DNA of 15,272 nucleotides from the UHGV virus genome UHGV-0202386. One strand, given 5' to 3'. The notes below the pieces were generated by a model. It was not told where the DNA came from and did not search any database. It worked only from the letters and a program-made list of their open reading frames with translations. Both the position numbers and the translations under genes were made by a program. Position 1 is the first letter of the stretch. Every line of letters starts with the position of its first letter. This document shows, piece by piece, positions 1 through 15,272 of the stretch. Source of the stretch: a virus.

Positions 1-125
1 TCACTGTTGAGGTACATATCAGTAAAGGTCTACCCGGCTTAACGATGGTGGGCTTACCAGAAACAACGGTAAAAGAAGCCCGCGATCGCGTGCGCAGCGC
101 CATTATCAATAGCGGATTTTTATAA
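1..125 (+). pseudogene. comM: comM/yifB 5' fragment, interrupted by the island; frame runs 3 codons into island DNA and stops at TAA 123-125
   Basis: In-frame translation from pos 3 reads [38 protein letters not shown] then FL-stop. This matches the conserved N-terminus of ComM/YifB Mg-chelatase-like ATPases as I recall it. The expected continuation [22 protein letters not shown] is found at the other end of the window. Confidence 0.85.
102..117. repeat. attL core: left copy of the 16-bp junction direct repeat (ATTATCAATAGCGGAT)
   Basis: Same 16-mer with one mismatch at 15134-15149. The left copy is the last stretch of native comM before divergence; the right copy is followed immediately by the comM continuation. 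Confidence 0.65.
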
Positions 126-303: not shown

Positions 304-1533
304 GTGAGCAGAGCGCTTAACAAACTGAGCGATACATTGTTAAGAAAACTTTATGGTAAGCCAGCGGAGAAAAATACGTTCTATAGCGATGGCGGTAATC
401 TGAGCGTGAAATATTTAACATCAGGTAAATTGACCTGGTACTTCACCTACAGGGCTGGAACGGGAAGGGATACCACACCGGAACGCCTGAAGCTGGGAAA
501 CTATCCCGATCTGAGCCTTAAAGCAGCCAGGGAAAAAGCCGCAAAGTGTCGTGCATGGCTGGCAGAAGGGAAAAACCCACGTCATGAACTGAACTACACT
601 GTGCAGGAAGCGTTAAAACCCGTAACGGTTGGCGATGCGATCAGTTACTGGCTGGAAACGCACGTAAAGGAAAACCGTGTCGATTATGTATGCCTGAAAA
701 GTCGCCTGAATAATCACGTCATACAGCACATCGGTAACATGCCACTGGATAAATGCGAATTACGTCACTGGCTGGCCTGTTTTGACCGGATACGCAAAAA
801 ATCCCCCGTAACGTCTGGTCACATGATGCAGGCGTGTAAACAGGCGCTTAAGTTCTGCCGTAAACGTCGCTACGCAGTCAGTAACGTTCTGGATGATCTC
901 AACGTGGTGGACGTTGGCAAAAAGCCGGGCATAAGCGAACGCGTGCTTAGTAACAAAGAACTGGGCGAATTATTACAGGCGCTGGATAAAAAAATATTCC
1001 CGCCCTACTACAGCGCACTAATCCGCCTCCTGATTGTGTTTGGTTGCCGAACCGGAGAACTGAGGCTGTCGGAGATCAGGGAGTGGGATTTTAAGGAAAT
1101 GCTCTGGACAGTACCGAAGGAGCACAGCAAAACGAAGGTCGCCATATTCAGGCCAATACCGGAAAGCATTTTACCGTTTGTCACACGGCTGGTGGAGCAG
1201 AACCGACACACAGGGCTATTACTCGGGGAACTGAAACAGGAAGCCAGCGTGTCGCAATACGGCAGATTCACGCACAAAAAATTAAACCATCCGCACTGGT
1301 CACTACACGATATACGGCGCACGTTTACCACGATGCTGAATGATTTAGGCGTGGATCCGCATATTGTCGAACAACTCACCGCTCACCAGATGCCAGGGAT
1401 GCAGCGAGTCTATAACCACTCCCGTTATCTCGATGCGAAACGTAATGCGCTGGACATGTGGACAGAGCGGTTAGAGATACTGGCGGGTACTCACGAAAAC
1501 GTAACCACACTGCCAATAGCCAGAGAAATATAA
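304..1533 (+). CDS. int: Tyrosine recombinase / phage integrase (P4-type, with N-terminal arm-binding DUF4102-like region); GTG start
   Basis: 409-aa ORF. N-terminal pattern YSDGGNLSV..LTSGKLTWYFTYR...LKLGNYPDLSLKAAREKAAKCRAWLAEGKNP is typical of P4-family integrase arm domains. C-terminal catalytic signatures GCRTGELR, HWSLHDIRRTF, VYNHSRYLD. RBS-like GGGGGAG upstream of GTG 304. Sits next to attL. Confidence 0.9.
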   Translation: MSRALNKLSDTLLRKLYGKPAEKNTFYSDGGNLSVKYLTSGKLTWYFTYRAGTGRDTTPERLKLGNYPDLSLKAAREKAAKCRAWLAEGKNPRHELNYTVQEALKPVTVGDAISYWLETHVKENRVDYVCLKSRLNNHVIQHIGNMPLDKCELRHWLACFDRIRKKSPVTSGHMMQACKQALKFCRKRRYAVSNVLDDLNVVDVGKKPGISERVLSNKELGELLQALDKKIFPPYYSALIRLLIVFGCRTGELRLSEIREWDFKEMLWTVPKEHSKTKVAIFRPIPESILPFVTRLVEQNRHTGLLLGELKQEASVSQYGRFTHKKLNHPHWSLHDIRRTFTTMLNDLGVDPHIVEQLTAHQMPGMQRVYNHSRYLDAKRNALDMWTERLEILAGTHENVTTLPIAREI

Positions 1534-1871: not shown

Positions 1872-2075
1872 ATGACGGAGGCAATAGTGTTAAGCGCTGA
1901 TCGCTTTATACGTGAAAAAGAATGTCAGCAACTTACAGGCCTGAGCCGCTCATGTCGGTATCGCCTGGAGAAGACTGGACAATTCCCATCACGGCGTAAA
2001 CTCGGCGGTCGTTCCGTTGGCTGGTCTTTATCCGAAGTTCTGGCATGGAAGGACAGCCGCGAGGCAGTTCACTAA
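1872..2075 (+). CDS. alpA: AlpA-family phage transcriptional regulator / excisionase-like HTH protein
   Basis: Translation RFIREKECQQLTGLSRSCRYRLEKTGQFPSRRKLGGRSVGWSLSEVLAWK matches the AlpA/Phage_AlpA pattern (..GxSRSTIYRL...FP....LG.RSVGW..SEV..W). Alternative in-frame GTG start at 1887 is preceded by GGAGG at 1877-1881. Confidence 0.8.
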   Translation: MTEAIVLSADRFIREKECQQLTGLSRSCRYRLEKTGQFPSRRKLGGRSVGWSLSEVLAWKDSREAVH

Positions 2076-2100: not shown

Positions 2101-2216
2101 CCCATCCACTAACACAGAGATCTAACCATGAATACTGGATATACGCCCGAACAGGGGCGGGGCTTCGTTCGTCCTGGTGAAACTAAAAAGCCATGTTATC
2201 GGGTATTTTCAGGCAT

Positions 2217-2287
2217 AAAAAAAGCGGCCCCGATAAGGAACCGCCTTTCTGAACAATTAACCTGCTGCGAAAAAAATGGATCAGTGC
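2217..2287 (-). ncRNA. Candidate small RNA of about 70 nt: extended -10 promoter to intrinsic terminator, in an ORF-free gap
   Basis: Minus-strand TGaTATAAT (plus 2294-2302) gives a predicted start near 2285-2287. Terminator hairpin at 2224-2248 (AAGGCGG..CCGCUU, about 11 bp with wobbles, 5-nt loop) is followed by U7 (plus A-run 2217-2223). No ORF of 60 aa or more on either strand here except the rejected long + frame. Confidence 0.3.
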
Positions 2288-2293
2288 AGGGGA

Positions 2294-2302
2294 ATTATAT
2301 CA
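2294..2302 (-). promoter_or_regulatory. Extended -10 promoter element TGaTATAAT (minus strand), no convincing -35
   Basis: Reverse complement of plus 2294-2302 reads TGATATAAT. Read directly. Confidence 0.35.
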
Positions 2303-2340
2303 ACCGTGTGGTGAAGCGCCACTATTGCCGGATAACAGGC

Positions 2341-2369
2341 AAAACAAAGGCGACCGCAAAAGGGTCGCC
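2341..2369 (-). terminator. Intrinsic terminator of the leftward RHH operon
   Basis: Perfect 7-bp stem GGCGACC/GGTCGCC (2349-2355 / 2363-2369) with 7-nt loop. On the minus strand it is followed by TTTGTTTTG (plus 2341-2348). Lies 66 nt downstream of the stop of ORF 2436-2609. Confidence 0.55.
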
Positions 2370-2435
2370 AGTGGGAACAAGGGAAAACAAAAGCATCACC
2401 AACAATGCCACATTTGCGGCTGGTGGGCAATGTGA

Positions 2436-2609
2436 TCAGTCAGATTTGGTTCGTTCCAAGGTTTGCAACGAGAGTTTTTTCCTGCGCTCTTTAAGGAATT
2501 TCTCAAGAGCAAACGAACAAGGTGCGAATCTTTCTGATTCATGCTCTATCTTTCTGCGCCGTCTTTTCCGTGTCGGTGATAATGTTTTGGTCAATTCTTT
2601 ATCGGTCAT
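2436..2609 (-). CDS. Hypothetical small basic protein (57 aa), second gene of the leftward operon
   Basis: ORF MTDKELTKTLSPTRKRRRRKIEHESERF..., AGGG 8 nt upstream of ATG 2609. An alternative ATG at 2624 has no RBS. A perfect 7-bp hairpin (2631-2637 / 2651-2657) separates it from the upstream gene. Supported mainly by the downstream terminator; no recognisable family. Confidence 0.35.
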   Translation of the reverse strand: MTDKELTKTLSPTRKRRRRKIEHESERFAPCSFALEKFLKERRKKLSLQTLERTKSD

Positions 2610-2666
2610 TGTGTTGCCCTGCATAGCAATGCGCCGTAATACCTTACACCACGGCGCTGGTGATGG

Positions 2667-2846
2667 TTACTCCTGCTCTTTGGCCTTGCGGCGCTGGCGG
2701 CGTTTGATCTCGCCTTGCATTGACGCAATGATGAATTGTGATGTGCTTTCGCCTGATTCTTTCACTGATTCCATGGCGTTTACTATTTCGTGTGGTACAC
2801 GAGCCTTTAGAGCTTGTGATTTTGCGTTTGTTGTACCCGTTGCCAT
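2667..2846 (-). CDS. Small ribbon-helix-helix (Arc/CopG-like) DNA-binding protein, candidate repressor of the divergent early promoter
   Basis: 59-aa ORF MATGTTNAKSQALKARVPHEIVNAMESVKESGESTSQFIIASMQGEIKRRQRRKAKEQE. By eye: beta strand (KARVP), helix, helix, basic tail. RBS AGAGGA upstream of ATG 2846. Faces a promoter overlapped by direct repeats. Confidence 0.65.
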   Translation of the reverse strand: MATGTTNAKSQALKARVPHEIVNAMESVKESGESTSQFIIASMQGEIKRRQRRKAKEQE

Positions 2847-2907
2847 TTCTATTCCTCTGTTGGATTGGTGGGGGACAGTATACACAGAAAAAGCACAAAT
2901 AAAACCC

Positions 2908-2948
2908 TTGACGTGGGCCACACCTAAAGCATATAGTGGGCCACACCT
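2908..2948 (+). promoter_or_regulatory. Rightward early promoter (-35 TTGACG 2908-2913, 18-bp spacer, -10 TATAGT 2932-2937) overlapped by two 13-bp direct-repeat operators GTGGGCCACACCT
   Basis: Repeat copies at 2913-2925 and 2936-2948 (perfect 13/13, 23-bp spacing), one over the -35/spacer and one over the -10/start. Sits in the divergent region between the RHH gene and the rightward ORF cluster. Confidence 0.5.
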
Positions 2949-2974
2949 TGAGATTGTCAAGGTGCATAAATGCA

Positions 2975-3009
2975 AAGCCCCGCAAGTGTCGTTACCACTC
3001 GCAGGGCTT
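2975..3009. other. Strong stem-loop in the 5' leader of the rightward operon; on the minus strand it reads as hairpin plus UUUGCAUUUAU
   Basis: AAGCCCCGCAAGTG (2975-2988) pairs with CACTCGCAGGGCTT (2996-3009) at 12 of 14 positions, 7-nt loop. No T-run on plus; T-rich tail on minus (plus 2961-2974). Confidence 0.5.
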
Positions 3010-3045
3010 CTAACCACCAACGATAGAAAGTGTATCGAGGTAGCT

Positions 3046-3252
3046 ATGAGAAATTATACCAGACACCCGCAAGGGCGGGACTCGTACAACCTGAATAAAT
3101 ACATCTGGCGTTTTATCGCCCTGAGCACGGCACAACCGCGCGTGATTACCATTGAGGCCACCAGCGAACAGGAAGCGCGTCAGCAATCTCCTGATGGCTG
3201 CGTGATGGTATTCGCTGCCCGTATTCGTCAGGGGGTACGCCATGTGCAATAA
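3046..3252 (+). CDS. Hypothetical protein (68 aa), first gene of the rightward early operon
   Basis: ATG 3046 preceded by GAGGT (3037-3041). Translation MRNYTRHPQGRDSYNLNKYIWRFIALSTAQPRVITIEATSEQEARQQSPDGCVMVFAARIRQGV. A vague resemblance to small Icd/Ash-like satellite proteins is my impression only. Confidence 0.6.
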   Translation: MRNYTRHPQGRDSYNLNKYIWRFIALSTAQPRVITIEATSEQEARQQSPDGCVMVFAARIRQGVRHVQ

Positions 3253-3938: not shown

Positions 3939-4238
3939 ATGAAACTTAAATATTCTGGCTTAACTGCCAGTGGCAACACTCACCCTAAATTTACGCGCGG
4001 CGATATTTACCGCGACCAGTACGGCGGCACGGTAATGATTAAGGGCGTGGAAGAACGGCGCGTAACCTACCGCCGTGAAGGTTACGAATATGATTGCGTG
4101 ATGCCTGTTTATCAGTTCCGGCGTGATTTTTCTCTGGTACAGACCGCGCCGCATAACGTGTCCACCAGCAACGCCAGGGCACGGGCAAACATCCAGAAGC
4201 TGAAAACCATGATTAACGGATTCAGGGGTAAAAAATGA
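3939..4238 (+). CDS. Hypothetical protein (99 aa), possibly DUF4222-like
   Basis: Motif YRDQYGGTVMIKGVEERRVTYRREGYEYDCVMPVYQFRRDF reminds me of DUF4222 proteins of enterobacterial prophages (memory only). Stop overlaps the primase start. Confidence 0.5.
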   Translation: MKLKYSGLTASGNTHPKFTRGDIYRDQYGGTVMIKGVEERRVTYRREGYEYDCVMPVYQFRRDFSLVQTAPHNVSTSNARARANIQKLKTMINGFRGKK

Positions 4239-6049
4239 AACTGGCACCGAACGTAAAACAGCAGTCACGCGGCATAAAACACAAAGAAACAGAAGTCATT
4301 ATTTTTGCGGGTAGTGATGCCTGGTCACACGCAAAACAATGGCAGGAACATGACGCGCGTATGGCCGGAGATAATGAGCCTCCTGTGTGGCTTGGGGAGC
4401 AGCAGTTATCCGAACTGGATAAGCTGCAAATTGTGCCGGAAGGCAGAAAATCCGTGCGCATATTCAGGGCCGGATATCTTGCGCCAGTAATGATAAAGGC
4501 GATTGGTCAGAAGCTGGCGGCGGCAGGCGTACAGGATGCAAATTTTTATCCTGAGGGTATGCACGGTCAGGAGGTGCAGAACTGGCGCGAATATCTGGCC
4601 CGTGAGCGCCAGAATCTTTCTGATGGTCTGGTGATTCAGCTTCCTGTTAAGAAAAAAACAGAAGACAGCGCCGCACCACTGGCGCTTAACCAGATGGGAG
4701 CAAGCCAGCGCGGCGAAGTTCTCCTGGCACATTATGGCGGTGAACTGGCGATTCATGCCGACTCTGACACTGTTCACCATTACAACGGCGTTGTATGGGA
4801 GCCGATTCAGGATAAAGAGTTACAGCGTGCTATGGCGCAGATTTTCATTGATGCGGAGATCAGCTATTCGCAGAACGCCATTAAATCGGCGGTCGATACC
4901 ATGAAGTTAAGTTTGCCTGTAATGGGGAATACAGCCCGTAACCTGATTGGATTCAGTAACGGGGTATTTGATACCAGAACAGGTAATTTTCGGGAGCATA
5001 ACAAAAACGACTGGTTGTTAATTGCCAGTGAATTACCTTTCAGCCCACCAGCAGAGGGGGAAACGCTGGCAACACATGCGCCGAATTTCTGGAAGTGGTT
5101 ACGCTGCTCGGTGGCAGAGAATGACCGCAAGACGGATCGCGTGCTGGCTGCATTATTCATGGTGCTGGCGAACCGGTACGACTGGCAGTTATTCATTGAG
5201 GTAACAGGTCCAGGGGGAAGTGGTAAAAGCGTGATGGCGGAGATTTGCACTATGCTGGCGGGTAAGGCCAACACAGTATCGGCAAGCATGAAGGCGCTGG
5301 AAGATGCAAGGGAACGCGCGTTAGTGGTTGGCTTTTCGCTGATTATCATGCCGGATATGACCCGCTACGCTGGTGATGGCGCAGGAATTAAGGCCATTAC
5401 AGGCGGTGACAAGGTGGCAATCGACCCGAAGCATAAAGCCCCCTACTCAACACGCATTCAGGCGGTCGTGCTGGCGGTGAACAATAACGCCATGTCATTC
5501 AGTGACCGCAGCGGGGGGATCTCACGTCGTCGGGTGATATTCAATTTTTCGGAGGTTGTACCGGAGAACGAGCGCGACCCCATGCTGGCAGAAAAAATAG
5601 AAGGAGAGCTGGCGGTTGTGATTCGCCATCTGCTTACTCGTTTTTCTGACCAGGACGAAGCTAAACGCCTGCTGTATGAGCAGCAGAAATCAGAAGAAGC
5701 TCTGGTGATAAAACGCGAGGGCGATTCGCTGGTGGACTTCTGTGGCTATCTCATGTCGTCGGTAATGTGTGATGGTCTGTTAGTGGGTAATGCCGAAATT
5801 ATTCCGTTCAGTCCGCGCAGGTATCTTTATCACGCCTATCTGGCATATATGAGGGCACACGGATTCGGTAAACCTGTAACACTGACGCGCTTCGGTAAAG
5901 ATATGCCGGGGGCAATGGCGGAATATGGCAGGGAGTATATAAAACGGAAAACGAAGCACGGTTTGCGTTCAAATGTGACACTGACAGAGGATTCAGAAGA
6001 CTGGATGCCATCATGTGCATCGGTCACAAATGACGACAGCAAAAATTAA
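4235..6049 (+). CDS. Replication initiator: P4-alpha-like primase / SF3 helicase (Walker A GPGGSGKS)
   Basis: 604-aa ORF. Walker A in VTGPGGSGKSVMAE, Walker B-like LIIMPDM, sensor AVVLAVNNN. Followed directly by TGTTCACC iterons, as for P4 alpha and its ori. Confidence 0.8.
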   Translation: MKLAPNVKQQSRGIKHKETEVIIFAGSDAWSHAKQWQEHDARMAGDNEPPVWLGEQQLSELDKLQIVPEGRKSVRIFRAGYLAPVMIKAIGQKLAAAGVQDANFYPEGMHGQEVQNWREYLARERQNLSDGLVIQLPVKKKTEDSAAPLALNQMGASQRGEVLLAHYGGELAIHADSDTVHHYNGVVWEPIQDKELQRAMAQIFIDAEISYSQNAIKSAVDTMKLSLPVMGNTARNLIGFSNGVFDTRTGNFREHNKNDWLLIASELPFSPPAEGETLATHAPNFWKWLRCSVAENDRKTDRVLAALFMVLANRYDWQLFIEVTGPGGSGKSVMAEICTMLAGKANTVSASMKALEDARERALVVGFSLIIMPDMTRYAGDGAGIKAITGGDKVAIDPKHKAPYSTRIQAVVLAVNNNAMSFSDRSGGISRRRVIFNFSEVVPENERDPMLAEKIEGELAVVIRHLLTRFSDQDEAKRLLYEQQKSEEALVIKREGDSLVDFCGYLMSSVMCDGLLVGNAEIIPFSPRRYLYHAYLAYMRAHGFGKPVTLTRFGKDMPGAMAEYGREYIKRKTKHGLRSNVTLTEDSEDWMPSCASVTNDDSKN

Positions 6050-6062
6050 ACTTATGGAATAA

Positions 6063-6293
6063 CTGTTCACCACTGTTCACCCTGTTATAAATATCTTTTA
6101 TATCAGTACATTATAGGGTGAACAGTTATTTGTGAACTGTTCACCAAACTATTCACTGTTCACCTTTTTGATTATTTATTGAGCTTTAAGGGTGAACAGT
6201 GGTGAACAGTTGGTGAATAGTTTTTGTGAAACTGTTCACCCCTTAACGTTATGAATAAAAAGGGAAAATCTCAAAAGGTGAACAGGTGAAGGG
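6063..6293. repeat. Origin of replication: about 11 copies of the 9-mer CTGTTCACC (P4 type-I iteron TGTTCACC) in both orientations
   Basis: Plus-orientation copies at 6063, 6073, 6137, 6156, 6232; reverse-orientation GGTGAACAG at 6117, 6191, 6201, 6277, with variants at 6212 and 6285. AT-rich spacers. Lies immediately downstream of the primase. Confidence 0.8.
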
Positions 6294-7040: not shown

Positions 7041-7571
7041 ATGACAACGCTGACCATTAACCGGAAGCCGAAAGGCATTTACGGCACGCCGCAGAAAACG
7101 ACGCAGGCGGCGCAAGAGCAGGATAAAACCACATCGGTGCATAAAGTGATACCCGGCAATCAGAACGCACAGCAGAAGCCCACAGGGGCGACACCGTGGC
7201 AGCATATGACCAAAAGGCAGCGCAAAAACCGCCGACGCGTTAACCGCCTCACTGAGATGTGGCCTGACTTATTCAGCCATAAAGCACCGAAGCCGCTTAA
7301 GGTGGGGATATTCGACGACCTGATGCAGGATATCGCCGTCAGGGGGCTGGCATTCGGGTCGGGGGTATTACGTGCGACGCTGGCATCCTATGCGCAGTCT
7401 CCGCGCTATTACCGCGCCCTGATAGCTGGTGGCGCACGTTACGACCTGAAGGGCCAGCCATGTGGGGAAGTGACACCACAGGAACAGCAGGAGGCAGAAA
7501 CACGGCTGATGGTGCTGAATGAGAAGCACAAGCGCCAGCGCCGGGCAGCAAAGGGGGATACATGCCAGTGA
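7041..7571 (+). CDS. ProQ/FinO-domain RNA-binding protein (FinO-like RNA chaperone)
   Basis: PKPLKVGIFDDLMQDIAVRG...LRATLASYAQSPRYYRALIAGGARYDLKGQPCGEVTPQEQQEA aligns by eye to the ProQ/FinO core (PLKIGIFQDL...[35 protein letters not shown]). Lys/Gln-rich N-terminal extension. RBS AGGGGAAGG. Confidence 0.8.
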   Translation: MTTLTINRKPKGIYGTPQKTTQAAQEQDKTTSVHKVIPGNQNAQQKPTGATPWQHMTKRQRKNRRRVNRLTEMWPDLFSHKAPKPLKVGIFDDLMQDIAVRGLAFGSGVLRATLASYAQSPRYYRALIAGGARYDLKGQPCGEVTPQEQQEAETRLMVLNEKHKRQRRAAKGDTCQ

Positions 7572-7810: not shown

Positions 7811-7820
7811 AGCGATAAAG

Positions 7821-7847
7821 GCCCGGATTTTTTCCGGGTCTTTTTTC
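7821..7847 (+). terminator. Rho-independent terminator ending the early/replication operon
   Basis: GCCCGGA-TTTTT-TCCGGGTC hairpin (7821-7840) followed by TTTTTT (7841-7847). Confidence 0.8.
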
Positions 7848-8083: not shown

Positions 8084-9229
8084 ATGAAGAAATTAATCGA
8101 ACTCCGCCAGCAAAAAACCGCCCTGAAAAACCAGATGCGATCCCTGCTGGAAAAAGCCGACAGTGAAAACCGCAGTCTAACCGATGACGAAGGCAAACAG
8201 TTTGATGAACTGCGTGCAAAAGCCGATTCCCTCGACACAGAAATTTCCCGCCTCGAGTCTGTGGCTGATGAAGAACGTAACCAGCCTGGTGTTCCCGTCG
8301 AAGATAAAATCACCAAAAATGAGCTACGCTCTTACATTCTGACCGGGGAAACCCGCAACCTGTCCGGCAGTGTTCCGGCTGATGGTGGTTATACGGTTAT
8401 CCCGGAACTGAACAGAGAAATTATGCGTCAGCTTTCTGATGAGTCGGTGATGCGTAAAATCTGTACTGTTAAAACCATTCACAGTAATGAATTTAAGCAA
8501 CTGGTTTCTGCCGGGGGTGCGGTCGTGGGACACGGCGAAGAAGGTGCGGCACGTAACCAGACGGCAACCCCAAAACTGAATGAAGTCAGTATCCGCCTGT
8601 ATCCGATCTACGCTTACCCGAAAACCACTCAGGAAATTATCGATTTTTCCGAAGTCGATATTATGGGCTGGTTATCTTCTGAAATTGGCGACACTTTCGT
8701 TGATACCGAAGAAACGGATCTGGTTTCCGGTGATGGCGAGAAAAAAGCCAAAGGTTTCCTGACTTTCCCGCGCGCTACGGATAATGACAAAACCCGTCCT
8801 TTCGGTACGCTCCAGACGAAAAAAGTGACTGGCAGTCTCAGCGCCGATATGCTGATTGACCTGAAATTTACGCTGCGCAATAAGTACCGCAAAAAAGCTG
8901 TATGGGTGATGAACTCAAATACAGCCGCCTCCGCACAAAAACTGAAAAATGCCACTGGTGATTACATCTGGCGCGATCGTTTACAGGCTGGTGATCCTGA
9001 TTCTCTGCTGGGGCTTCCGGTTGAATATCTGGAATTTATGCCGGACGGTGTGATTGCAGTCGGTGACTTTAAGCGCGGTTATTTCATCGTTGACCATAAA
9101 ACCGGTACGCGTACCCGTCCGGATTTCAGCGAGCCTGGATTCATTAACATCTATACCCAGAAATATCTGGGCGGTGGTGTGGTGGATTCGAACGCCATCA
9201 AGATTCTGGAAATTCAGGCTGGCAAGTAA
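8084..9229 (+). CDS. HK97-family major capsid protein with N-terminal coiled-coil delta/scaffold domain
   Basis: 381 aa. N-terminal about 70 aa is charged coiled-coil (ELRQQKTALKNQMRSLLEKADSENRSL..). C-terminal motifs LLGLPVEYLEFMP..GDFKRGYFIVDHKTG...YLGGGVVDSNAIKILE are typical of Phage_capsid (HK97 fold). Confidence 0.85.
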   Translation: MKKLIELRQQKTALKNQMRSLLEKADSENRSLTDDEGKQFDELRAKADSLDTEISRLESVADEERNQPGVPVEDKITKNELRSYILTGETRNLSGSVPADGGYTVIPELNREIMRQLSDESVMRKICTVKTIHSNEFKQLVSAGGAVVGHGEEGAARNQTATPKLNEVSIRLYPIYAYPKTTQEIIDFSEVDIMGWLSSEIGDTFVDTEETDLVSGDGEKKAKGFLTFPRATDNDKTRPFGTLQTKKVTGSLSADMLIDLKFTLRNKYRKKAVWVMNSNTAASAQKLKNATGDYIWRDRLQAGDPDSLLGLPVEYLEFMPDGVIAVGDFKRGYFIVDHKTGTRTRPDFSEPGFINIYTQKYLGGGVVDSNAIKILEIQAGK

Positions 9230-9278
9230 TGAGCAAAGGGGGCTTCGGCCTCCTTTTTCAGCTTTATGGAGTACACCG

Positions 9279-9839
9279 ATGAAAAACACCGATTTTGAAA
9301 TCCGTACATCTGAACTGACCGCCAGCGATAAAAAACTGGTGGGTTATGCCGTTCGCTGGAACAGCCTTTCAGAAATTATCTGGGACGAGTTTCGCGAACA
9401 GTTCACGCCGGGGGCTTTTGCTGACTATCTGGCGGCGGGTAATGATGTGCGCTGTCTGTATGAGCATGACTATACCCAACTGCTGGGGCGTACCAAATCC
9501 GGCTCACTGGTACTGACTGAGGATAACACCGGGCTACGTTTTGAACTGACACCGCCAAATACCCAGCTTGGAAAAGATGTGCTTACGCTGGTGGAACGTG
9601 GCGATATTACAGGAATGAGCTTTGGCTTTCGCGCATTATGCGAGGAGTGGAATATCGCGCAAAAACCGTATCTGCGTACTGTAACCGCCGCAGAACTCCG
9701 TGAAATCACGATAACATCGATGCCTGCTTATCCCGAATCCGGCGTGGAGATTGCCCACCGTTCGTTGTTTGCACAGTACCCTGAATTACGCCCGGCAGGA
9801 AATAATCGTCATCGCTGGGCTGAACTGGCGGGGTTGTGA
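9279..9839 (+). CDS. HK97-family prohead (maturation) protease
   Basis: MKNTDFEIR...LVGYAVRWN...FTPGAFADYL...VRCLYEHD..QLLGRTKSGSLVLTEDNTGLRFE...GKDVLTLVERGDITGMSFGF matches the Peptidase_S78/U35 prohead-protease pattern. GGAG RBS at 9268-9271. Confidence 0.85.
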   Translation: MKNTDFEIRTSELTASDKKLVGYAVRWNSLSEIIWDEFREQFTPGAFADYLAAGNDVRCLYEHDYTQLLGRTKSGSLVLTEDNTGLRFELTPPNTQLGKDVLTLVERGDITGMSFGFRALCEEWNIAQKPYLRTVTAAELREITITSMPAYPESGVEIAHRSLFAQYPELRPAGNNRHRWAELAGL

Positions 9840-9840
9840 T

Positions 9841-11055
9841 ATGTGGTGGCCTTTTAGTCGTAAAAAAAGCGATCTGCGTAACCTGTCCATTGATGATTTT
9901 CTGGCGTTGTCTGGTGTACCAAATACCGGATCCGGAGAATATGTTTCTGCCGGGACGGCTGAATCATTGCCTGCTGTGATGAACGCGGTTTCTGTCATCG
10001 CTGAGGCGGTGGCCACGATGCCGTGTTACCTGTATCTGGTACGCAATGATAAGGGCAGAGAGGCGCGGGAATGGCTGGACAGTCACCCGGTAGATATTCT
10101 GCTGAATGAGCAGCCTAATTCGTGCCTGACACCTTACCAGTTTAAACGCACAATGATGCGTCACTGCCTGCTGAACGGTAACGCCTATGCGGTTATTGAG
10201 TGGGGGCGGGACGGGCAGCCAAAATCACTTCATCCTTATGCGCCGGGGTGTGTTGTACCGGAACGCACAGGCACACACAAATACCGCTATACCATCACCG
10301 AACCCTGTACAGGAACGGTGCGCACGTATTTACAGGAAGAAGTTCTGCATCTCCGCTATGCCTCGGATGATGGCTTTCTGGGGCGTTCCCCCGTCACGAT
10401 TTGCCGTGAGGCGCTGGGGCTTGGCCTTGCTCAACAGCGCCACGGAGCCAGCATTATGAAAGATGGCATGATGGCGGCAGGGATTATCACGTCAGGTGAA
10501 TGGCTGGACGGCGTGAAAGGTAAACAGGCATTAGACGCACTGGAACGCTACAAGGGGGCGAAAAATGCCGGAAAAACGCCAATCCTTGAAGGGGGCATGG
10601 ATTACAGGCAGCTGGGGATGAGTAACCAGGATGCGGAATGGCTGGCCTCCCGTCGCTTCTCCATTGAAGACATCGCCAGGATGTTCAACGTGTCGCCGAT
10701 TTTTCTTCAGGAATACAGCAACAGCACCTACAGCAATTTCAGTGAGGCGAGCCGCGCATTTCTGACCATGACAATGCGCCCGTGGCTGGCGAACTTCGAA
10801 CAGCAAATCAAGGCCGCTTTGCTGGTGACTTCTCCCGTACCTGGTACCCGTTATCTGGTTGAGTTTGATTCAGCCGATTTACTGCGCGCCACACCCACCG
10901 AACGTTATGCCACGTATGAGAAAGGGATTAAGAGCGGGATCATGAATCCGAACGAAGCTCGCGAACGCGAGGGTATGCCGCCGCGTGAAGGTGGTGATGA
11001 GTTCAGCCAGGCATGGAAACAGACTGTGGAAATTAAAGGGAGAAAAGATGAGTGA
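9841..11055 (+). CDS. HK97-family portal protein
   Basis: 404 aa from ATG 9841, 1 nt after the protease stop. Long conserved portal-like core (NAYAVIEWGRDGQP..., SIMKDGMMAAGIITSGEWLDG..., FLTMTMRPWLANFEQQIKAALL). Position and size fit a portal. Confidence 0.8.
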   Translation: MWWPFSRKKSDLRNLSIDDFLALSGVPNTGSGEYVSAGTAESLPAVMNAVSVIAEAVATMPCYLYLVRNDKGREAREWLDSHPVDILLNEQPNSCLTPYQFKRTMMRHCLLNGNAYAVIEWGRDGQPKSLHPYAPGCVVPERTGTHKYRYTITEPCTGTVRTYLQEEVLHLRYASDDGFLGRSPVTICREALGLGLAQQRHGASIMKDGMMAAGIITSGEWLDGVKGKQALDALERYKGAKNAGKTPILEGGMDYRQLGMSNQDAEWLASRRFSIEDIARMFNVSPIFLQEYSNSTYSNFSEASRAFLTMTMRPWLANFEQQIKAALLVTSPVPGTRYLVEFDSADLLRATPTERYATYEKGIKSGIMNPNEAREREGMPPREGGDEFSQAWKQTVEIKGRKDE

Positions 11056-11350
11056 AGCCAGAATTACACCTGATGAAGTCAGGGCACATCTTCGACTTGA
11101 TGATGATTTATCCGGTGAAGGCGAACTTCTGAAAATGTATACCGATGCGGCGCTGGAAGCCTGCCAGAAGCATATCGGGAAACGTTTTGAAGACGGGCTG
11201 GAATTTACCCCGGCAATGCGTGTTGGTTGCCTGATGTACATCGCTTTCCTGTACGAGAACCGGGAAGCGGTTTCACCAGTGGAGCAGTCTGAACTGCCTA
11301 TGGCTATTTCTGCGCTCTGGTCAGTTTATCGTGATGTAGGGGTGTACTGA
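11048..11350 (+). CDS. gp6-like head-tail connector (head completion/adaptor) protein
   Basis: 100 aa. MSEARITPDEVRAHLRLDDDLSGEGELLKMYTDAALEACQKHIGKRF matches the Phage_connect_1 N-terminal pattern (..HLRID.D.D...I......AA). Start overlaps the portal stop. Confidence 0.7.
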   Translation: MSEARITPDEVRAHLRLDDDLSGEGELLKMYTDAALEACQKHIGKRFEDGLEFTPAMRVGCLMYIAFLYENREAVSPVEQSELPMAISALWSVYRDVGVY

Positions 11351-11790
11351 TGCCGTGGCAACCATTAAGGCGATGCACTGAGCCGGGCTGTAATAAGCGC
11401 GTGAAGTCCGGCAAGTGTGAAGAGCACAGGCGGGCTGTATGGCGTGCAGAGGATGCCAGACGGGGACACCGCCGCGCGCGCGGGTATTCCCGACAGTGGG
11501 ACAAATACCGCGCCCTGTACCTGAGCAAAAACCCGTTATGCGTGCGTTGTCTGGCTAAGGGGATTTATACGCCAGCTCTTGTGGTGGATCACATCATCCC
11601 CATCAATGGCGGCGGTGATGTTCTCTTCTGGCCTGAGTGGAACCACCAGGCATTGTGCCAGACGTGCCACAACCGTAAGACGACACGGGAAGATCCAGCC
11701 ACGAAAGCGAACCGTAAGGCGGGCATGTATCGCGAGCAGGAAGAACGGGCAGCACACCGTAACGACTGGATGTATGGCGATGATGACTGA
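11350..11790 (+). CDS. Phage HNH endonuclease (terminase-associated)
   Basis: Cys-rich zinc finger (CTEPGCNKRVKSGKCEEH ... CVRC ... CQTCHNRKT) with VVDHIIPINGGGD..WNHQALC HNH core. Located immediately upstream of terS/terL, as in HK97-like cos phages. ATG overlaps the upstream stop (TGATG). Confidence 0.8.
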   Translation: MPWQPLRRCTEPGCNKRVKSGKCEEHRRAVWRAEDARRGHRRARGYSRQWDKYRALYLSKNPLCVRCLAKGIYTPALVVDHIIPINGGGDVLFWPEWNHQALCQTCHNRKTTREDPATKANRKAGMYREQEERAAHRNDWMYGDDD

Positions 11791-11959
11791 ACAGGAGCAA
11801 ACCAGGCTGATACGTGGACTGATAAGGCAGCGTGACTTATGGAAGACACAGGAGACAGGGCACAAAGCCAACAGGACAGGGCGCACAAAACGCACCACAG
11901 CGAAGCGATTAACCGACCGTGACCGCGAGGCCATGGAATGTTTTCGCAATCGCTGGTGA
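11780..11959 (+). CDS. Doubtful small basic ORF (about 59 aa) overlapping the HNH stop; may instead be non-coding cos DNA
   Basis: ATG-ATG at 11780/11783, no clear RBS. Arg/Lys/Thr-rich low-complexity translation. Confidence 0.2.
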   Translation: MMTEQEQTRLIRGLIRQRDLWKTQETGHKANRTGRTKRTTAKRLTDRDREAMECFRNRW

Positions 11960-12078
11960 GGCCGTCAGAGGGGGTGGGGGTGGTTTTCAGGACGAAACCG
12001 TCCCTGCCGGACACCGACCGCCTCCTCAAATTTTTGTGCACGGGAATTTTTTTGAAAATAATTGGGCGAAAAAAGAAC
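11791..12078 (+). other. Candidate cos/packaging-recognition region between HNH and terS, containing a G-rich tract
   Basis: 288-bp gap without a convincing gene. GGGGGTGGGGGTGG at 11970-11983 followed by a CAGGACG-AAAC-CGTCCCTG hairpin. Location argument: in HK97-like phages cos lies between the HNH gene and terS. Confidence 0.3.
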
Positions 12079-12435
12079 ATGGCAAGACCACCAAAAGCCC
12101 CCGCTTACCTGGATGAAATCGCGGTCAGGCAGTGGAAGGAAAAATCGCGCCAGCTTTCCGGACGGGAAGACCTTACCCCCGCCGACTGGAGCAATCTGGA
12201 GCTGTATTGTGTTAACTACTCCATATACCGCAAAGCCGTCGAAGACCTTGCCACGCGCGGGTTCAGCATTGTTAACAGTCAGGGCAGCGAGAGCAGAAAC
12301 CCCGCCCTGAGCGCAAAGGCTGACGCTGAAAGAATAATGATCAAAATGGCTTCTTTGCTGGGTTTTGACCCGGTAAGTCGCCGCAGAAATCCACCGGAAA
12401 CAGAGGAAGAGGACGAGCTTGACCGCCTGGCATGA
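12079..12435 (+). CDS. terS: Terminase small subunit, P27 family
   Basis: MARPPKAPAYLDEIAVRQWKEK...LELYCVNYSIYRKAVEDL...GSESRNPALSAKADAERIMIKMASLLGFDPVSRRR matches the P27-family TerS pattern. The ORF-track N-terminal extension (from 11938) has no support. Confidence 0.75.
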   Translation: MARPPKAPAYLDEIAVRQWKEKSRQLSGREDLTPADWSNLELYCVNYSIYRKAVEDLATRGFSIVNSQGSESRNPALSAKADAERIMIKMASLLGFDPVSRRRNPPETEEEDELDRLA

Positions 12436-14080
12436 GTACGCAGAAGGCGTAAAAAACGGCAAAATTACGGCCTGTAAACGACTGAAACAGGCCGTTAAAC
12501 GGTATTTTTCTGACCTTGAAAACCCCCTTTACACGTTCGATCCGGAGGTCGTGGAGCGGTTTATTGCCTTTTCCAGGGTGTGTCCGCACGTAAAAGGCGC
12601 AATGCGCGGTAGCCCCATTGAGCTGGAGCCGTGGCAGCAGTTCGCCTTTGCGTGCATCCTGGGCTTTAAGGTTAAGGCCACCGGACGGCGCAAATACACC
12701 AGCGCATTCATTGAAGTGCCGCGAAAAAATGCCAAATCCACGGTCGCCGCTATCCTGGCTAACTGGTTTCTGGTTATGGAAAACGGGCAGCAGGATATTT
12801 ACACCGCCGCTGTGAGTCGTGATCAGGCGCGGATCGTGTTTGATGATGCGCGTCAGATGTGCCTTTTATCCCGACCGTTACGAAAGCGGGTAAATATTCA
12901 GGCACACAAGGTGATACACCCGAAAACCAACAGCCTGTTAAAGCCACTGGCAGCAAAAGCGGCAACCATTGAAGGTACAAACCCGAGTCTTGCCATTGTG
13001 GATGAATATCACCTGCACCCTGACAACGGGGTTTATTCCGCGCTTGAACTGGGAATGGGGGCGCGTCCGGAGGGGCTGTTATTTGCCATCACCACATCGG
13101 GGAGCAACGTTGTTTCAGCCTGTAAACAACACTATGACTATTGCTGCCAGATACTGGATGGTGAAGAGGTGAACGAATCCATGTTCGTGCTGATTTACGA
13201 GCTGGATGATGAAAGCGAGGTTGACGATCCGGCGATGTGGATAAAGGCGAATCCCAATATCGATGTTTCCGTCGATCGTGAAAAACTGGCCTCAACCATC
13301 CAGAAAGCGCGGGGTATTCCGTCGCAGTGGGTGGAAATGCTCACCAAGCGATTCAATATCTGGTGTCAGGGGGCTACGCCGTGGATGGGTAACGGTGCAT
13401 GGGCGGAGTGCGCCGGAACGTTCGCGGAGGCGGATTTATACGGTCAGGAGTGCTACGCGGGGCTGGACTTATCATCAACCAGCGATATTTCCAGCGTGTG
13501 CTATGCCTTTCCGGTCGGTAAAAAGATTATGCTGGTTTCCCGTCACTATCTGCCGGAATTTCAGCTACAGAACCCCGCCAATAAAAACCGCGCCATCTAT
13601 CGCCAGTGGGTAAAGGCGGGCTGGATACGCACAACACCGGGTGACTGCATTGATTATGACCGTATCCGTGATGACATCATGGCGGATGCAGAGAATTTCA
13701 ATATCAGGCTGGTGGGCTTCGATACATGGAACGCCACGCACCTGAGGACGCAGCTACAGGGGGCAGGATTTGAGGTGGAGCCGTTCCCGCAAACATACCT
13801 TCGTTTCAGTCCGGCGGCGAAATCGTTCGAAGTTTTTGTTAACCGGAAGGTGATTGTGCATCGTGGCGATCCGGTGCTGGCCTGGTCAATGAGTAATGTT
13901 GTGATGCAGAGTGACGCGAACGCCAATATCAAGCCGAACAAGAAAAAATCATCCAACAAGATAGACCCGAGCGTTGCGGCTCTGATGGCGTTTGGCACAT
14001 TCCAGGCAGAACATGAGGAATTTGCATTTGATATAAGCGACAGCCACAAAGAGCGGCTTGCGGCGTTTGATGGGGTATGA
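12419..14080 (+). CDS. terL: Terminase large subunit (Terminase_1-like ATPase/nuclease); apparent TTG start overlapping terS by 17 nt
   Basis: 553 aa. Size, position after terS and a conserved-looking N-terminal region (PWQQFAFACILGFKV..., DIYTAAVSRDQARIVFDDAR). No in-frame ATG until codon 62; GAGGA at 12408-12412 precedes TTG 12419. Confidence 0.85.
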   Translation: MTAWHEYAEGVKNGKITACKRLKQAVKRYFSDLENPLYTFDPEVVERFIAFSRVCPHVKGAMRGSPIELEPWQQFAFACILGFKVKATGRRKYTSAFIEVPRKNAKSTVAAILANWFLVMENGQQDIYTAAVSRDQARIVFDDARQMCLLSRPLRKRVNIQAHKVIHPKTNSLLKPLAAKAATIEGTNPSLAIVDEYHLHPDNGVYSALELGMGARPEGLLFAITTSGSNVVSACKQHYDYCCQILDGEEVNESMFVLIYELDDESEVDDPAMWIKANPNIDVSVDREKLASTIQKARGIPSQWVEMLTKRFNIWCQGATPWMGNGAWAECAGTFAEADLYGQECYAGLDLSSTSDISSVCYAFPVGKKIMLVSRHYLPEFQLQNPANKNRAIYRQWVKAGWIRTTPGDCIDYDRIRDDIMADAENFNIRLVGFDTWNATHLRTQLQGAGFEVEPFPQTYLRFSPAAKSFEVFVNRKVIVHRGDPVLAWSMSNVVMQSDANANIKPNKKKSSNKIDPSVAALMAFGTFQAEHEEFAFDISDSHKERLAAFDGV

Positions 14081-14370
14081 CGAGAATGAGCGAAACCGAA
14101 CTACTAAAAATAATCCGTCGCGTTACCGGAATCAGCCAGGAAGCAGGCAAACAGGAGGCCACGCAGCCGGACAGCGTGATAGCCGAAAATTACGCGCGTG
14201 TGGTGGCTGAGGTGATGCGCCGTGACGGTATCGAGCTTAACGGCGTGGATATACGCAATATACGCACCAGAGTTCTGGAGTTGTTGTCATATCGTCGCCG
14301 CGTGGAGATGTACCAGGAGAAAGAAAAAATTACTTACCACTGGAAGAAGCCGGAGCGGTTACGACGTTAA
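14077..14370 (+). CDS. Hypothetical protein (97 aa) translationally coupled to terL
   Basis: ATG 14077 overlaps the terL stop (ATGA). Alternative ATG at 14086. Unknown family. Confidence 0.5.
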   Translation: MTRMSETELLKIIRRVTGISQEAGKQEATQPDSVIAENYARVVAEVMRRDGIELNGVDIRNIRTRVLELLSYRRRVEMYQEKEKITYHWKKPERLRR

Positions 14371-14376
14371 CTTGTG

Positions 14377-14426
14377 GTGACATACCGTGACGGAGAGTGA
14401 CAACCAGTGACACACAGTGACAAAAA
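14377..14426 (+). repeat. Five GTGAC(A) motifs at exactly 10-bp spacing (one face of the helix)
   Basis: GTGAC starts at 14377, 14387, 14397, 14407, 14417 (GTGACATACC / GTGACGGAGA / GTGACAACCA / GTGACACACA / GTGACAAAAA). Begins 7 bp after the last stop codon. Confidence 0.7.
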
Positions 14427-14799: not shown

Positions 14800-15000
14800 G
14801 AAAAATTGCATTCAGGAGGTGGGATCGAAATCCCTACAACCCATTGCTTATGGGACTGCCCGCCCCGTCAAATTTTTACACCCGCGAAAAATACTTCAAG
14901 CTGGTGGGCATGATGCCGATATGGGGATCCCCATGTCGACATTAACGCCCCTCATGAATTGGCGTGCTTCCCCCTGGAAAGATGACCCGCCTGTATATTT

Positions 15001-15066
15001 CTTGTGTCTATTTGTTCCACGTTGTTTCATACAGTGCACCGAACGGTGTAGTTACTGGTGTAGTCA
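15001..15066 (+). repeat. Right-arm copy of the terminal repeat: 3 phased TTGT motifs, TTGTTCCACGTTGT, and tandem GGTGTAGTTA/GGTGTAGTCA
   Basis: TTGT at 15002, 15012, 15022. TTGTTCCACGTTGT 15013-15026 is identical to 214-227. GGTGTAGTTACTGGTGTAGTCAT 15045-15067 versus left GGTGTAGTCACTGGTGTAGTCAT 246-268. Confidence 0.6.
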
Positions 15067-15133
15067 TTTTGCGATTTTTAAAGTTATCTAAGATATTATT
15101 TGTCATTTAAATTCAATTGGTTATGAGTACTTG

Positions 15134-15149
15134 ATTATAAATAGCGGAT
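15134..15149. repeat. attR core: right copy of the 16-bp junction repeat (ATTATAAATAGCGGAT)
   Basis: 15 of 16 identical to 102-117. comM sequence resumes in frame from here. Confidence 0.65.
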
Positions 15150-15272
15150 ATGAATATCCGGCGAAAAAAATCACCATCAATCTGGCTCCAGCCGATCTGC
15201 CAAAAGAAGGGGGACGATATGATTTACCTATCGCCATTGCGTTGCTGGCGGCCTCAGAACAGCTTACAGCCA
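15140..15272 (+). pseudogene. comM: comM/yifB continuation (3' part, runs off the window), separated from its 5' end by the island
   Basis: In-frame translation [44 protein letters not shown] continues the ComM N-terminal domain begun at 1-116. The frame is closed upstream by TAA 15089-15091, with no ATG or RBS before the junction. Confidence 0.8.

Follow-up and report, generated by a model that had tools for sequence, protein, structure and literature searches.

Phage-inducible chromosomal islands of the capsid-forming type (cf-PICIs) are phage satellites that build small capsids and a packaging apparatus of their own and obtain only tails from their helper phages (Alqurainy et al., bioRxiv 10.1101/2022.09.08.507074). 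The prototype of this group, EcCIEDL933 of Escherichia coli O157:H7 EDL933, is 15.4 kb long; its module genes are needed for transfer, not for replication, and it forms small capsids that receive helper tails only (bioRxiv 10.1101/2022.09.08.507074). In the prototype literature, its capsid is described as a T=4 shell of 47.5 nm, and helper induction, small island-encoded capsids, and tail-only dependence have been demonstrated only for EcCIEDL933 and a few others (bioRxiv 10.1101/2022.09.08.507074; 10.1101/2025.02.11.637232). The conserved gene order of proteobacterial cf-PICIs was reported as 'capsid-protease-portal-head connectors ... hnh-terS-terL' (Alqurainy et al., bioRxiv 10.1101/2022.09.08.507074), in which the last two genes encode the small and large terminase subunits (TerS and TerL). 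In this work, we analyze the virus genome UHGV-0202386, a DNA stretch of 15,272 nucleotides (hereafter, the window), with a focus on positions 8084-14370. With a probability of roughly 90%, this region is the late capsid-building and DNA-packaging operon of a cf-PICI residing inside E. coli yifB. The element is a member of the proteobacterial cf-PICI family, whose layout has already been published; its arrangement is thus a known one, and the identification explains all the features that were flagged in an earlier note on this DNA, made from its letters alone.

The TTG start of terL is already present in the RefSeq annotation and in the tested prototype, and the gene order is a published hallmark of proteobacterial cf-PICIs. 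The present analysis adds a firm cf-PICI identification, comparative support for the TerL start, two designs of the terS-terL junction, a candidate cos element, and a common sub-lineage without the head-completion gene.

Identity of the island and its gene order

Protein families were assigned by Pfam, PHROG, and NCBIfam profile searches, and the PGAP annotation of a RefSeq E. coli chromosome, 99.4% identical across the whole window, served as a cross-check; its coordinates agree for the late genes. These profile collections and the PGAP coordinates bore out the family calls and the gene order of the earlier note, as well as its hint of a satellite with its own capsid. Membership in the cf-PICI group was measured against the SatelliteFinder model (11 core components) and the criteria of He et al. 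(bioRxiv 10.1101/2025.02.11.637232). The island is about 15.0 kb long, with 15,032 bp between the 23-nt direct repeats that split yifB, and lies within the size range of cf-PICIs bounded by attachment (att) sites (~10-18 kb). Its left half encodes a P4-type integrase, AlpA, an Icd-like gene, DUF4222, a D5/P4-type primase, SSB, and a ProQ/FinO-domain protein, so that the integrase, AlpA, and primase of a cf-PICI are all present. The late block supplies the island's own capsid, protease, and portal, its own HNH endonuclease, TerS, and TerL, and a PF05135 connector, arranged in the conserved proteobacterial order. SatelliteFinder accepts 10 of the 11 core components as cfPICI 'Type B'; the adaptor (PF05521) is lacking, and membership holds under the SatelliteFinder quorum, not under the full list of He et al. 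No tail or holin/lysis genes are listed by PGAP for the 99.4%-identical copy or appear among the Pfam/PHROG results for the open reading frames (ORFs) scanned, some small ORFs being unscanned. The tail, lysis, and immunity modules and the order terS-terL-portal-protease-capsid of an intact HK97-like prophage are absent from the window.

The prototype was located in the EDL933 chromosome and compared with the window gene by gene. Both elements are ~15 kb long and consist of an int, alpA, Icd-like, DUF4222, primase, and SSB backbone followed by a late module in the order capsid-protease-portal-connector-HNH-small ORF-TerS-TerL-small ORF; both have a TTG start of terL within a 17-nt terS overlap, together with the -1 and -17 overlaps. 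Identity to EcCIEDL933 amounts to 94% for TerL, 88% for TerS, 84% for HNH, 80% for the portal, 77% for the last ORF, 75% for the 61-aa small ORF (orf61), and 73.5% for the capsid, while the protease (59%) and the connector (56%) are the most divergent. The window differs from the prototype in lacking the PF05521 gene, in its att site (yifB instead of the roxA/phoQ region), and in carrying a ProQ/FinO-domain gene instead of PerC. The same module order and the TTG/17-nt design were found in KpCIDSM30104 (Klebsiella pneumoniae ATCC 13883, L014) and in vB_KppS-Ant (LR881103.1), with TerL 83% identical; unlike the window, both have the head-completion gene and other accessory genes after terL. ATCC 13883 is presumably the same strain as DSM 30104, consistent with identity values of 31-35% and 60% against the published 35% and 63%. 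The record LR881103.1 ('Escherichia phage vB_KppS-Ant', 16.5 kb) comes from an induced lysate and was deposited as a phage, with cf-PICI content and order; its packaged order extends from terS-terL at the left end to capsid-protease-portal-gp9-connector-HNH-small ORF at the right end. The classical PICI EcCICFT073 resembles the window in its left half (alpA, Icd-like, DUF4222, P4-type primase, SSB) and in its last gene (79% nucleotide identity), but it has no such portal, protease, connector, HNH, TerS, or TerL and depends on the capsid proteins of its helper.

When one genome per species was scanned, 80 loci were obtained whose TerL is 70-93% identical to that of the window. The gene order is kept in every locus with enough flank (~60 of the 80), in Escherichia, Shigella, Klebsiella, Enterobacter, Serratia, Pantoea, Erwinia, Yersinia, Proteus, Xenorhabdus, Photorhabdus, Gilliamella (Orbaceae), Pasteurellaceae, and Aeromonas. 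Being conserved across relatives, the order is a family trait and not a peculiarity of the window, and what had been noted as a non-canonical arrangement of this DNA is the published cf-PICI layout. True phages show at most 37% TerL identity to the window; closer records labeled 'phage' are only satellite-like entries of 10-16.5 kb and one 106-kb Klebsiella phage record, whose contents were uninspected. The records 'Pasteurella phage Pmp7' and 'Pmp8' (OR544138.1 and OR544139.1; 10.7 and 15.3 kb; TerL 70% identical) are satellite-like by size. Five or more TerL loci of the cf-PICI family occur in a single genome of Xenorhabdus kozodoii (L021, L034, L047, L058, and L064), in one of which (L064) the capsid-protease pair is duplicated; one genome of X. 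khoisanae likewise holds five or more separate TerL loci (L007, L026, L040, L057, and L065).

One alternative, which we regard as very improbable, is that the window holds the remains of an HK97-like prophage in decay, without tail and lysis genes and short of one neck gene, that is no longer mobile. Phage homologs are indeed known for all module proteins, but true phages are distant in TerL, and EcCIEDL933, with the same layout, is experimentally mobile. The lack of tail and lysis genes, which decay would explain, is shared by ~60 loci from several bacterial families in which the tail-less layout recurs with the int-alpA-primase backbone. All ORFs are intact, and TerL is under strong purifying selection, with a ratio of nonsynonymous to synonymous substitution rates (dN/dS) of ~0.06. 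Even the absence of the head-completion gene, which would fit a partial loss, recurs at the same junction, with 90-100% identity in 143 complete E. coli genomes and also in 9 other species, pointing to a maintained lineage and not to a product of recent decay.

Phage HK97 is similar to the window in its delta-domain capsid, S78 protease, portal, gp6-like Ad1 connector, and HNH-dependent cos terminase, and in the placement of cos between HNH, the final gene ahead of it, and terS-terL, which follow directly. The HK97 order is terS-terL-portal-protease-capsid-Ad1-Hc1 ... HNH | cos, whereas the window, rotated to begin at terS, reads terS-terL-...-capsid-protease-portal-connector-HNH. The earlier description of a usual HK97 module that has been circularly permuted does not hold: capsid and portal are exchanged, so that portal, protease, and capsid follow one another in the opposite cyclic order, which rotation cannot achieve. 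The accompanying remark that the terminase comes last and adjoins att is correct as to the late position of the terminase, but TerL ends ~1 kb from attR. Only the hnh | cos | terS-terL junction is HK97-like, and the order of the morphogenetic genes is a cf-PICI-specific rearrangement; the PF05521/PF05135 (Hc1/Ad1) pair of EcCIEDL933 is also opposite in order to HK97 gp6/gp7. The window further differs from HK97 in its P27-type TerS and in the absence of tail, lysis, and lysogeny-control genes; sequence similarity to HK97 is low, its capsid giving no phmmer match to the HK97 capsid at E 1e-3, and the capsid geometries are T=4 (EcCIEDL933) and T=7 (HK97).

There is little to favor a standard HK97 head module permuted around att in which a TTG codon holds TerL low. 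The HK97-like junction agrees with it, initiation at TTG is in general weaker than at ATG, and few TerL copies are needed; however, the capsid-protease-portal order runs against that of HK97 on the same strand, the Hc1/Ad1 pair is reversed in EcCIEDL933, and the comparison of terL starts described below (ATG at the same residue in more than half of the close homologs, a stronger Shine-Dalgarno sequence with TTG, and no masking mRNA structure) leaves this reading hardly credible.

The coordinates of the cf-PICI features are collected in Table 1. The best PDB match of the capsid is 9GYI (a 385-aa 'Major head protein'; E 1e-184; residues 1-377 aligned), followed by the capsids of Rhodobacter gene transfer agents, and the mature N-terminus is predicted from homology at about S94. 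Distances between neighboring genes are +49 (capsid/protease), +1 (protease/portal), -8 (portal/connector), -1 (connector/HNH), -17 (HNH/orf61), +119 (orf61/TerS), -17 (TerS/TerL), and, if ATG 14077 is used, -4 nt (TerL/last ORF). The claim that many junctions overlap by 1-17 nt is thus certain for four of them (-8, -1, -17, and -17), whereas the -4 overlap is doubtful, since PGAP and the PHROG profile, together with the N-termini of 944 homologs, favor ATG 14086 (+5 gap). TerS corresponds to the 118-aa ORF from 12079 and not to the 165-aa mechanical ORF starting at 11938.

The 61-aa gene at 11774-11959 had been overlooked in the first reading. It is the relative of EDL933_RS34035, and tblastn matches are found at the same position in ~25 loci. 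Counting from capsid = 1786 in the nine-gene module, we infer that orf61 is the counterpart of the EcCIEDL933 'hypothetical gene 1792'; mutation of this gene severely reduced transfer, whereas mutations of all other module genes abolished it (Alqurainy et al., bioRxiv 10.1101/2022.09.08.507074).

Homologs of the last ORF form the final gene before attR both in EcCIEDL933 and in EcCICFT073. On the basis of this position in a cf-PICI and in a classical PICI, the gene is part of the PICI backbone/accessory set and not of the HK97-like module. Relatives occur in more than 1000 E. coli genomes, and all 944 homologs are annotated as 'hypothetical'; no Pfam, NCBIfam, PADLOC, or PDB sequence match was obtained. 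An AlphaFold2 model has three helices (pLDDT 66, pTM 0.43), built from a shallow alignment of 19 sequences 81-93% identical to the query, and is too weak for a fold search. Two candidate roles were rejected. That of an Rpp-like packaging redirector found no support in PDB, Pfam, NCBIfam, or PADLOC, and that of a displaced neck protein fails because the head-completion profile scores only E 0.82 and the ORF coexists with the head-completion gene in EcCIEDL933, so that it is no substitute for it.

Table 1. Features of the island in the window; evidence as obtained in the searches described in the text.
Feature	Positions	Strand	Evidence or remark
attL-side copy of 23-nt imperfect direct repeat	102-124		yifB fragment ends here (annotation and repeat scan)
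P4-type integrase	304-1533		PF00589 and PF13356
AlpA-type regulator	1872-2075		PF05930, 3e-18
Primase/replicase, D5/P4 type	4235-6049		D5_N, Pox_D5, DUF5906; PGAP 'DNA primase family protein'
ProQ/FinO-domain protein	7041-7571		immediately upstream of capsid operon
Terminator-like hairpin with U-run	7814-7847	+	closes upstream replication/regulation block; -19 kcal/mol, z = -4.0, 0/200 shuffles fold as well
HK97-fold major capsid protein, N-terminal delta/scaffold domain, 381 aa	8084-9229	+	PF05065, 7e-61
Hairpin, UUCG loop and U-run	9230-9260	+	just after capsid gene; -16.7 kcal/mol, z = -3.2, 0/200 shuffles
Prohead serine protease, HK97 family (S78), 186 aa	9279-9839	+	PF04586, 4.5e-45
Portal, 404 aa	9841-11055	+	PF04860, 1.6e-91
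gp6-like head-tail connector, Ad1 type, 100 aa	11048-11350	+	PF05135; phrog_40 Ad1, 1.8e-28
HNH endonuclease (packaging accessory of HK97-type cos terminases), 146 aa	11350-11790	+	PF01844; phrog_144, 7e-45
Small basic ORF (orf61), 61 aa	11774-11959	+	PGAP call; between HNH and TerS
Conserved non-coding element upstream of terS, candidate cos (cosN/cosB)	11970-12061		GGGGGTGGGGG ... CACCGACCGCCTCCTCAAATTTTTGTGCACGGGAATTTTTTTGAAAATAA
TerS, P27 family, 118 aa	12079-12435	+	PF05119; TIGR01558
GAGGA Shine-Dalgarno (12409-12413), 5-nt spacer, TTG (12419-12421)	12409-12421	+	inside terS 3' end
TerL, ATPase and nuclease, 553 aa, TTG-initiated	12419-14080	+	PF03354 and PF20441; phrog_9, 6e-181
Small conserved hypothetical protein (last ORF), 94 aa	14086-14370	+	phrog_1561, 9e-50; 97 aa if ATG 14077 used
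attR-side copy of direct repeat	15134-15156		83% identical to 102-124; yifB resumes

The terL start and the candidate cos region

The terL frame follows an upstream stop at 12374, and TTG 12419 is the only ATG, GTG, or TTG codon before codon 45. The earlier statement that no in-frame ATG occurs for 61 codons is accurate, with the first ATG at codon 62, although GTG 12551 and GTG 12578 also lie in frame before it. The Shine-Dalgarno sequence is formed by the codons of the acidic TerS C-terminus (EEEDE), and the N-terminal peptide expected from the TTG start is MTAWHEYAEGVK. PGAP calls TTG both in the near-identical copy of the window and in EcCIEDL933, where the junction sequence and the 17-nt overlap are identical. 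Among the 80 loci, aligned residue 1 is encoded by ATG in 44, TTG in 33, and GTG in 1, and the start of the ATG-bearing relatives falls precisely on the homologous residue (M[TN]AW..YA). In codons 7-61, which lie outside the terS overlap, the median dN/dS against the window is 0.16, compared with 0.064 in the remaining gene; both values indicate purifying selection on a translated sequence. Initiation at TTG 12419, as proposed in the earlier note, is thus upheld by PGAP, by the EcCIEDL933 junction, by the aligned start codons, and by dN/dS, and initiation at a downstream ATG, named there as the outcome that would overturn the proposal, is contradicted by the homolog alignment and by the selection on codons 7-61.

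A start at ATG 12602 (codon 62), or at GTG 12551 or 12578, which would leave the upstream 44-61 codons untranslated, would use, in the case of ATG, the commonest start codon and would keep both domains (the Pfam ATPase domain begins at residue 71), but it is very unlikely given the aligned starts, the dN/dS values, and the late next starts: the PHROG profile aligns from residue 2, homologs of 70-93% identity align from residue 1 with a start codon there, codon 62 is other than ATG in most homologs, PGAP calls TTG, and in several TTG-type loci (L010, L011, L020, L072, and L074) the next in-frame start after codon 1 comes only at codon 100-113, close to or beyond the Walker A motif (~residue 104).

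Two discrete designs of the terS-terL junction were found in the family (L003-L082). In one, a TTG lies within terS, with an overlap of 17 nt (rarely 14 nt), and is always paired with a well-spaced, stronger Shine-Dalgarno sequence, for which the duplex with the anti-Shine-Dalgarno has a dG of -5.8 to -12.3 kcal/mol. In the other, an ATG stands in a 4-nt ATGA overlap or after a short gap, mostly in the ATGA stop-start arrangement, and has a weak Shine-Dalgarno sequence (-5.6 to +1.6 kcal/mol). The TTG design occurs in Enterobacteriaceae, Erwiniaceae, Yersiniaceae, and Gilliamella, and the ATG design in Morganellaceae and Pasteurellaceae. Folding revealed no masking mRNA structure at the TerL start of the kind expected for structure-based coupling (z -0.6 to +1.3). 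In sequence comparison, TTG with a strong Shine-Dalgarno and ATG with ATGA have the appearance of two interchangeable ways of coupling, not of a dedicated throttle, and they may be similar in TerL output.

The 119-nt gap between orf61 and terS contains an element, also overlooked in the first reading, that is conserved nearly base for base across genera: GGGGTGGGGG ... ACC.CC.CC.CCTCAAATTTTTACGCACGG..TTTTTTTGAAAAT. Its blocks are near-invariant in a set of 56 distinct sequences, which come from Enterobacterales, Orbaceae, and some Pasteurellaceae, and in ~40 loci the motif TC[AG]AATTTTT keeps a fixed distance to the TerL start (-379 to -432). The linear record LR881103.1, compared with an integrated K. 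pneumoniae copy, omits exactly 69 nt of the element between its two ends. This is the pattern expected if the physical DNA ends lie in the element, and 11970-12061 is therefore proposed as the cos region. When a phage genome was sought whose termini would define the cos motif, a single unannotated record of 1.6 kb was all that turned up. The cos-region motif CCGCC.C.TCAAATTTTT.C.C.CG has a second copy, 74% identical, at 14855-14888; it is limited to the element type of the window, does not occur elsewhere in the family, and may be a chance match or a pseudo-cos.

The portal-connector junction

In EcCIEDL933 and most relatives, a PF05521 gene, annotated by PGAP as 'head closure', is located between the portal and the connector. 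Judging by identity values that match the published ones, this gene seems to be what He et al. (bioRxiv 10.1101/2025.02.11.637232) call the 'adaptor'. In the window, the portal and connector genes overlap by 8 nt with no ORF between them, and a PF05521 head-completion profile hidden Markov model built from 45 homologs detected nothing in its six frames (best E 0.55; EcCIEDL933 control 1e-42). The head-completion gene is individually essential in EcCIEDL933 (Alqurainy et al., bioRxiv 10.1101/2022.09.08.507074).

Among 5,426 complete E. coli genomes, 534 have a portal of the window's family, and the contiguous portal-connector junction is found in 143 of these. The 9 other species with such a junction are scattered over the connector tree, and only one of them, Symbiopectobacterium sp. 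(L056, ~9105-9540), has the head-completion gene relocated, in an enlarged HNH-terS gap. A 2-residue connector indel, promising at first as a signature of the presence or absence of the head-completion gene, does not track this trait. A scan of IMG/VR for the junction returned 24 contigs, mostly prophage calls from isolate genomes, which are uninformative on packaging. We tentatively suggest that the window represents a widespread cf-PICI sub-lineage without the head-completion (stopper) gene, although we consider this less likely than not. If functional, such islands would take a helper head-completion protein as well as a tail, which would change the 'steals only tails' rule and narrow the choice of helper; alternatively, the Ad1 connector alone would seal the filled capsid and dock tails. 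Both possibilities are relevant to the published proposal that cf-PICI capsids filled with DNA but lacking tails persist outside cells, and the sub-lineage would offer a lead on which virion parts satellites need from their helpers.

Working model, expression signals, and flanking features

For a cf-PICI of this type, the following course may be proposed. A helper phage would trigger AlpA-dependent excision and primase-driven replication, and transcription of the operon would then start upstream of the capsid gene. Small (T=4) procapsids would be assembled from the HK97-fold capsid protein, protease, and portal that the island itself encodes, TerS would recognize the cos element that the island carries immediately upstream of terS, TerL and HNH would cut and package one 15-kb genome, and the gp6-like connector would dock a tail taken from the helper phage. 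The gene order would run from the most to the least abundant product, with the capsid first, then the hairpin, the compact and partly overlapping genes, and TerL last. The packaged linear order would be cos-terS-terL-...-int-...-capsid-protease-portal-connector-HNH-orf61-cos.

Of the two hairpins in Table 1, which were missed by the pattern scan and each then folded directly, the one after the capsid gene matches the position of an annotated putative terminator after gp5 in HK97. It is a candidate partial terminator, which would favor the capsid over downstream products.

Several points weigh against the cf-PICI reading with its working model. The model is carried over by homology from EcCIEDL933. 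As the PF05521 gene is absent from the window but essential in the prototype, autonomous completion of the capsid is not assured. A sigma-70 and terminator pattern scan gave sites no more numerous than in shuffled sequence, and an operon promoter was not found. The region 11970-12061 is a candidate cos, suggested by conservation and the ends of one database record; we infer the link between gene order and protein amount; and an effect of TTG on the TerL level is unproven and weakened by the comparative picture.

Several side observations concern the remaining parts of the island. The ProQ/FinO-domain gene just before the late operon may encode a different late-gene regulator or an RNA chaperone; at this place, EcCIEDL933 and EcCICFT073 have a PerC-family regulator. 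The 374-aa open frame at 2128-3252 has a C-terminal Icd-like domain (residues 325-368) as its sole recognizable part and gave no PADLOC match. The near-identical RefSeq copy has a short Icd-like gene and two minus-strand genes there, and the AT skew flips at 2501-3000; in its full extent, the frame is probably not a real gene. Repeats of CACTGTTCACC / GGTGAACAG, both direct and inverted, cluster at 6061-6240, directly downstream of the primase gene, in the position expected for a PICI replication origin.

The right arm between the last ORF and attR is free of genes; in it, directly behind the stop codon of that ORF, five GTGAC motifs are arranged at an exact 10-bp spacing (14377-14421). This array, absent from EcCIEDL933 and EcCICFT073, which have another integrase and att site, may represent putative integrase arm-type or AlpA/excisionase binding sites. 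Just within both island ends lies a 76-nt imperfect direct repeat (196-271 and 14995-15070; 78% identical), in which TTGTTCCACGTTGT and GGTGTAGTCA units recur; repeats are also recorded at 136-164, 199-227, and 14998-15026. These end repeats are probably integrase arm sites of attP or a relic of tandem integration.

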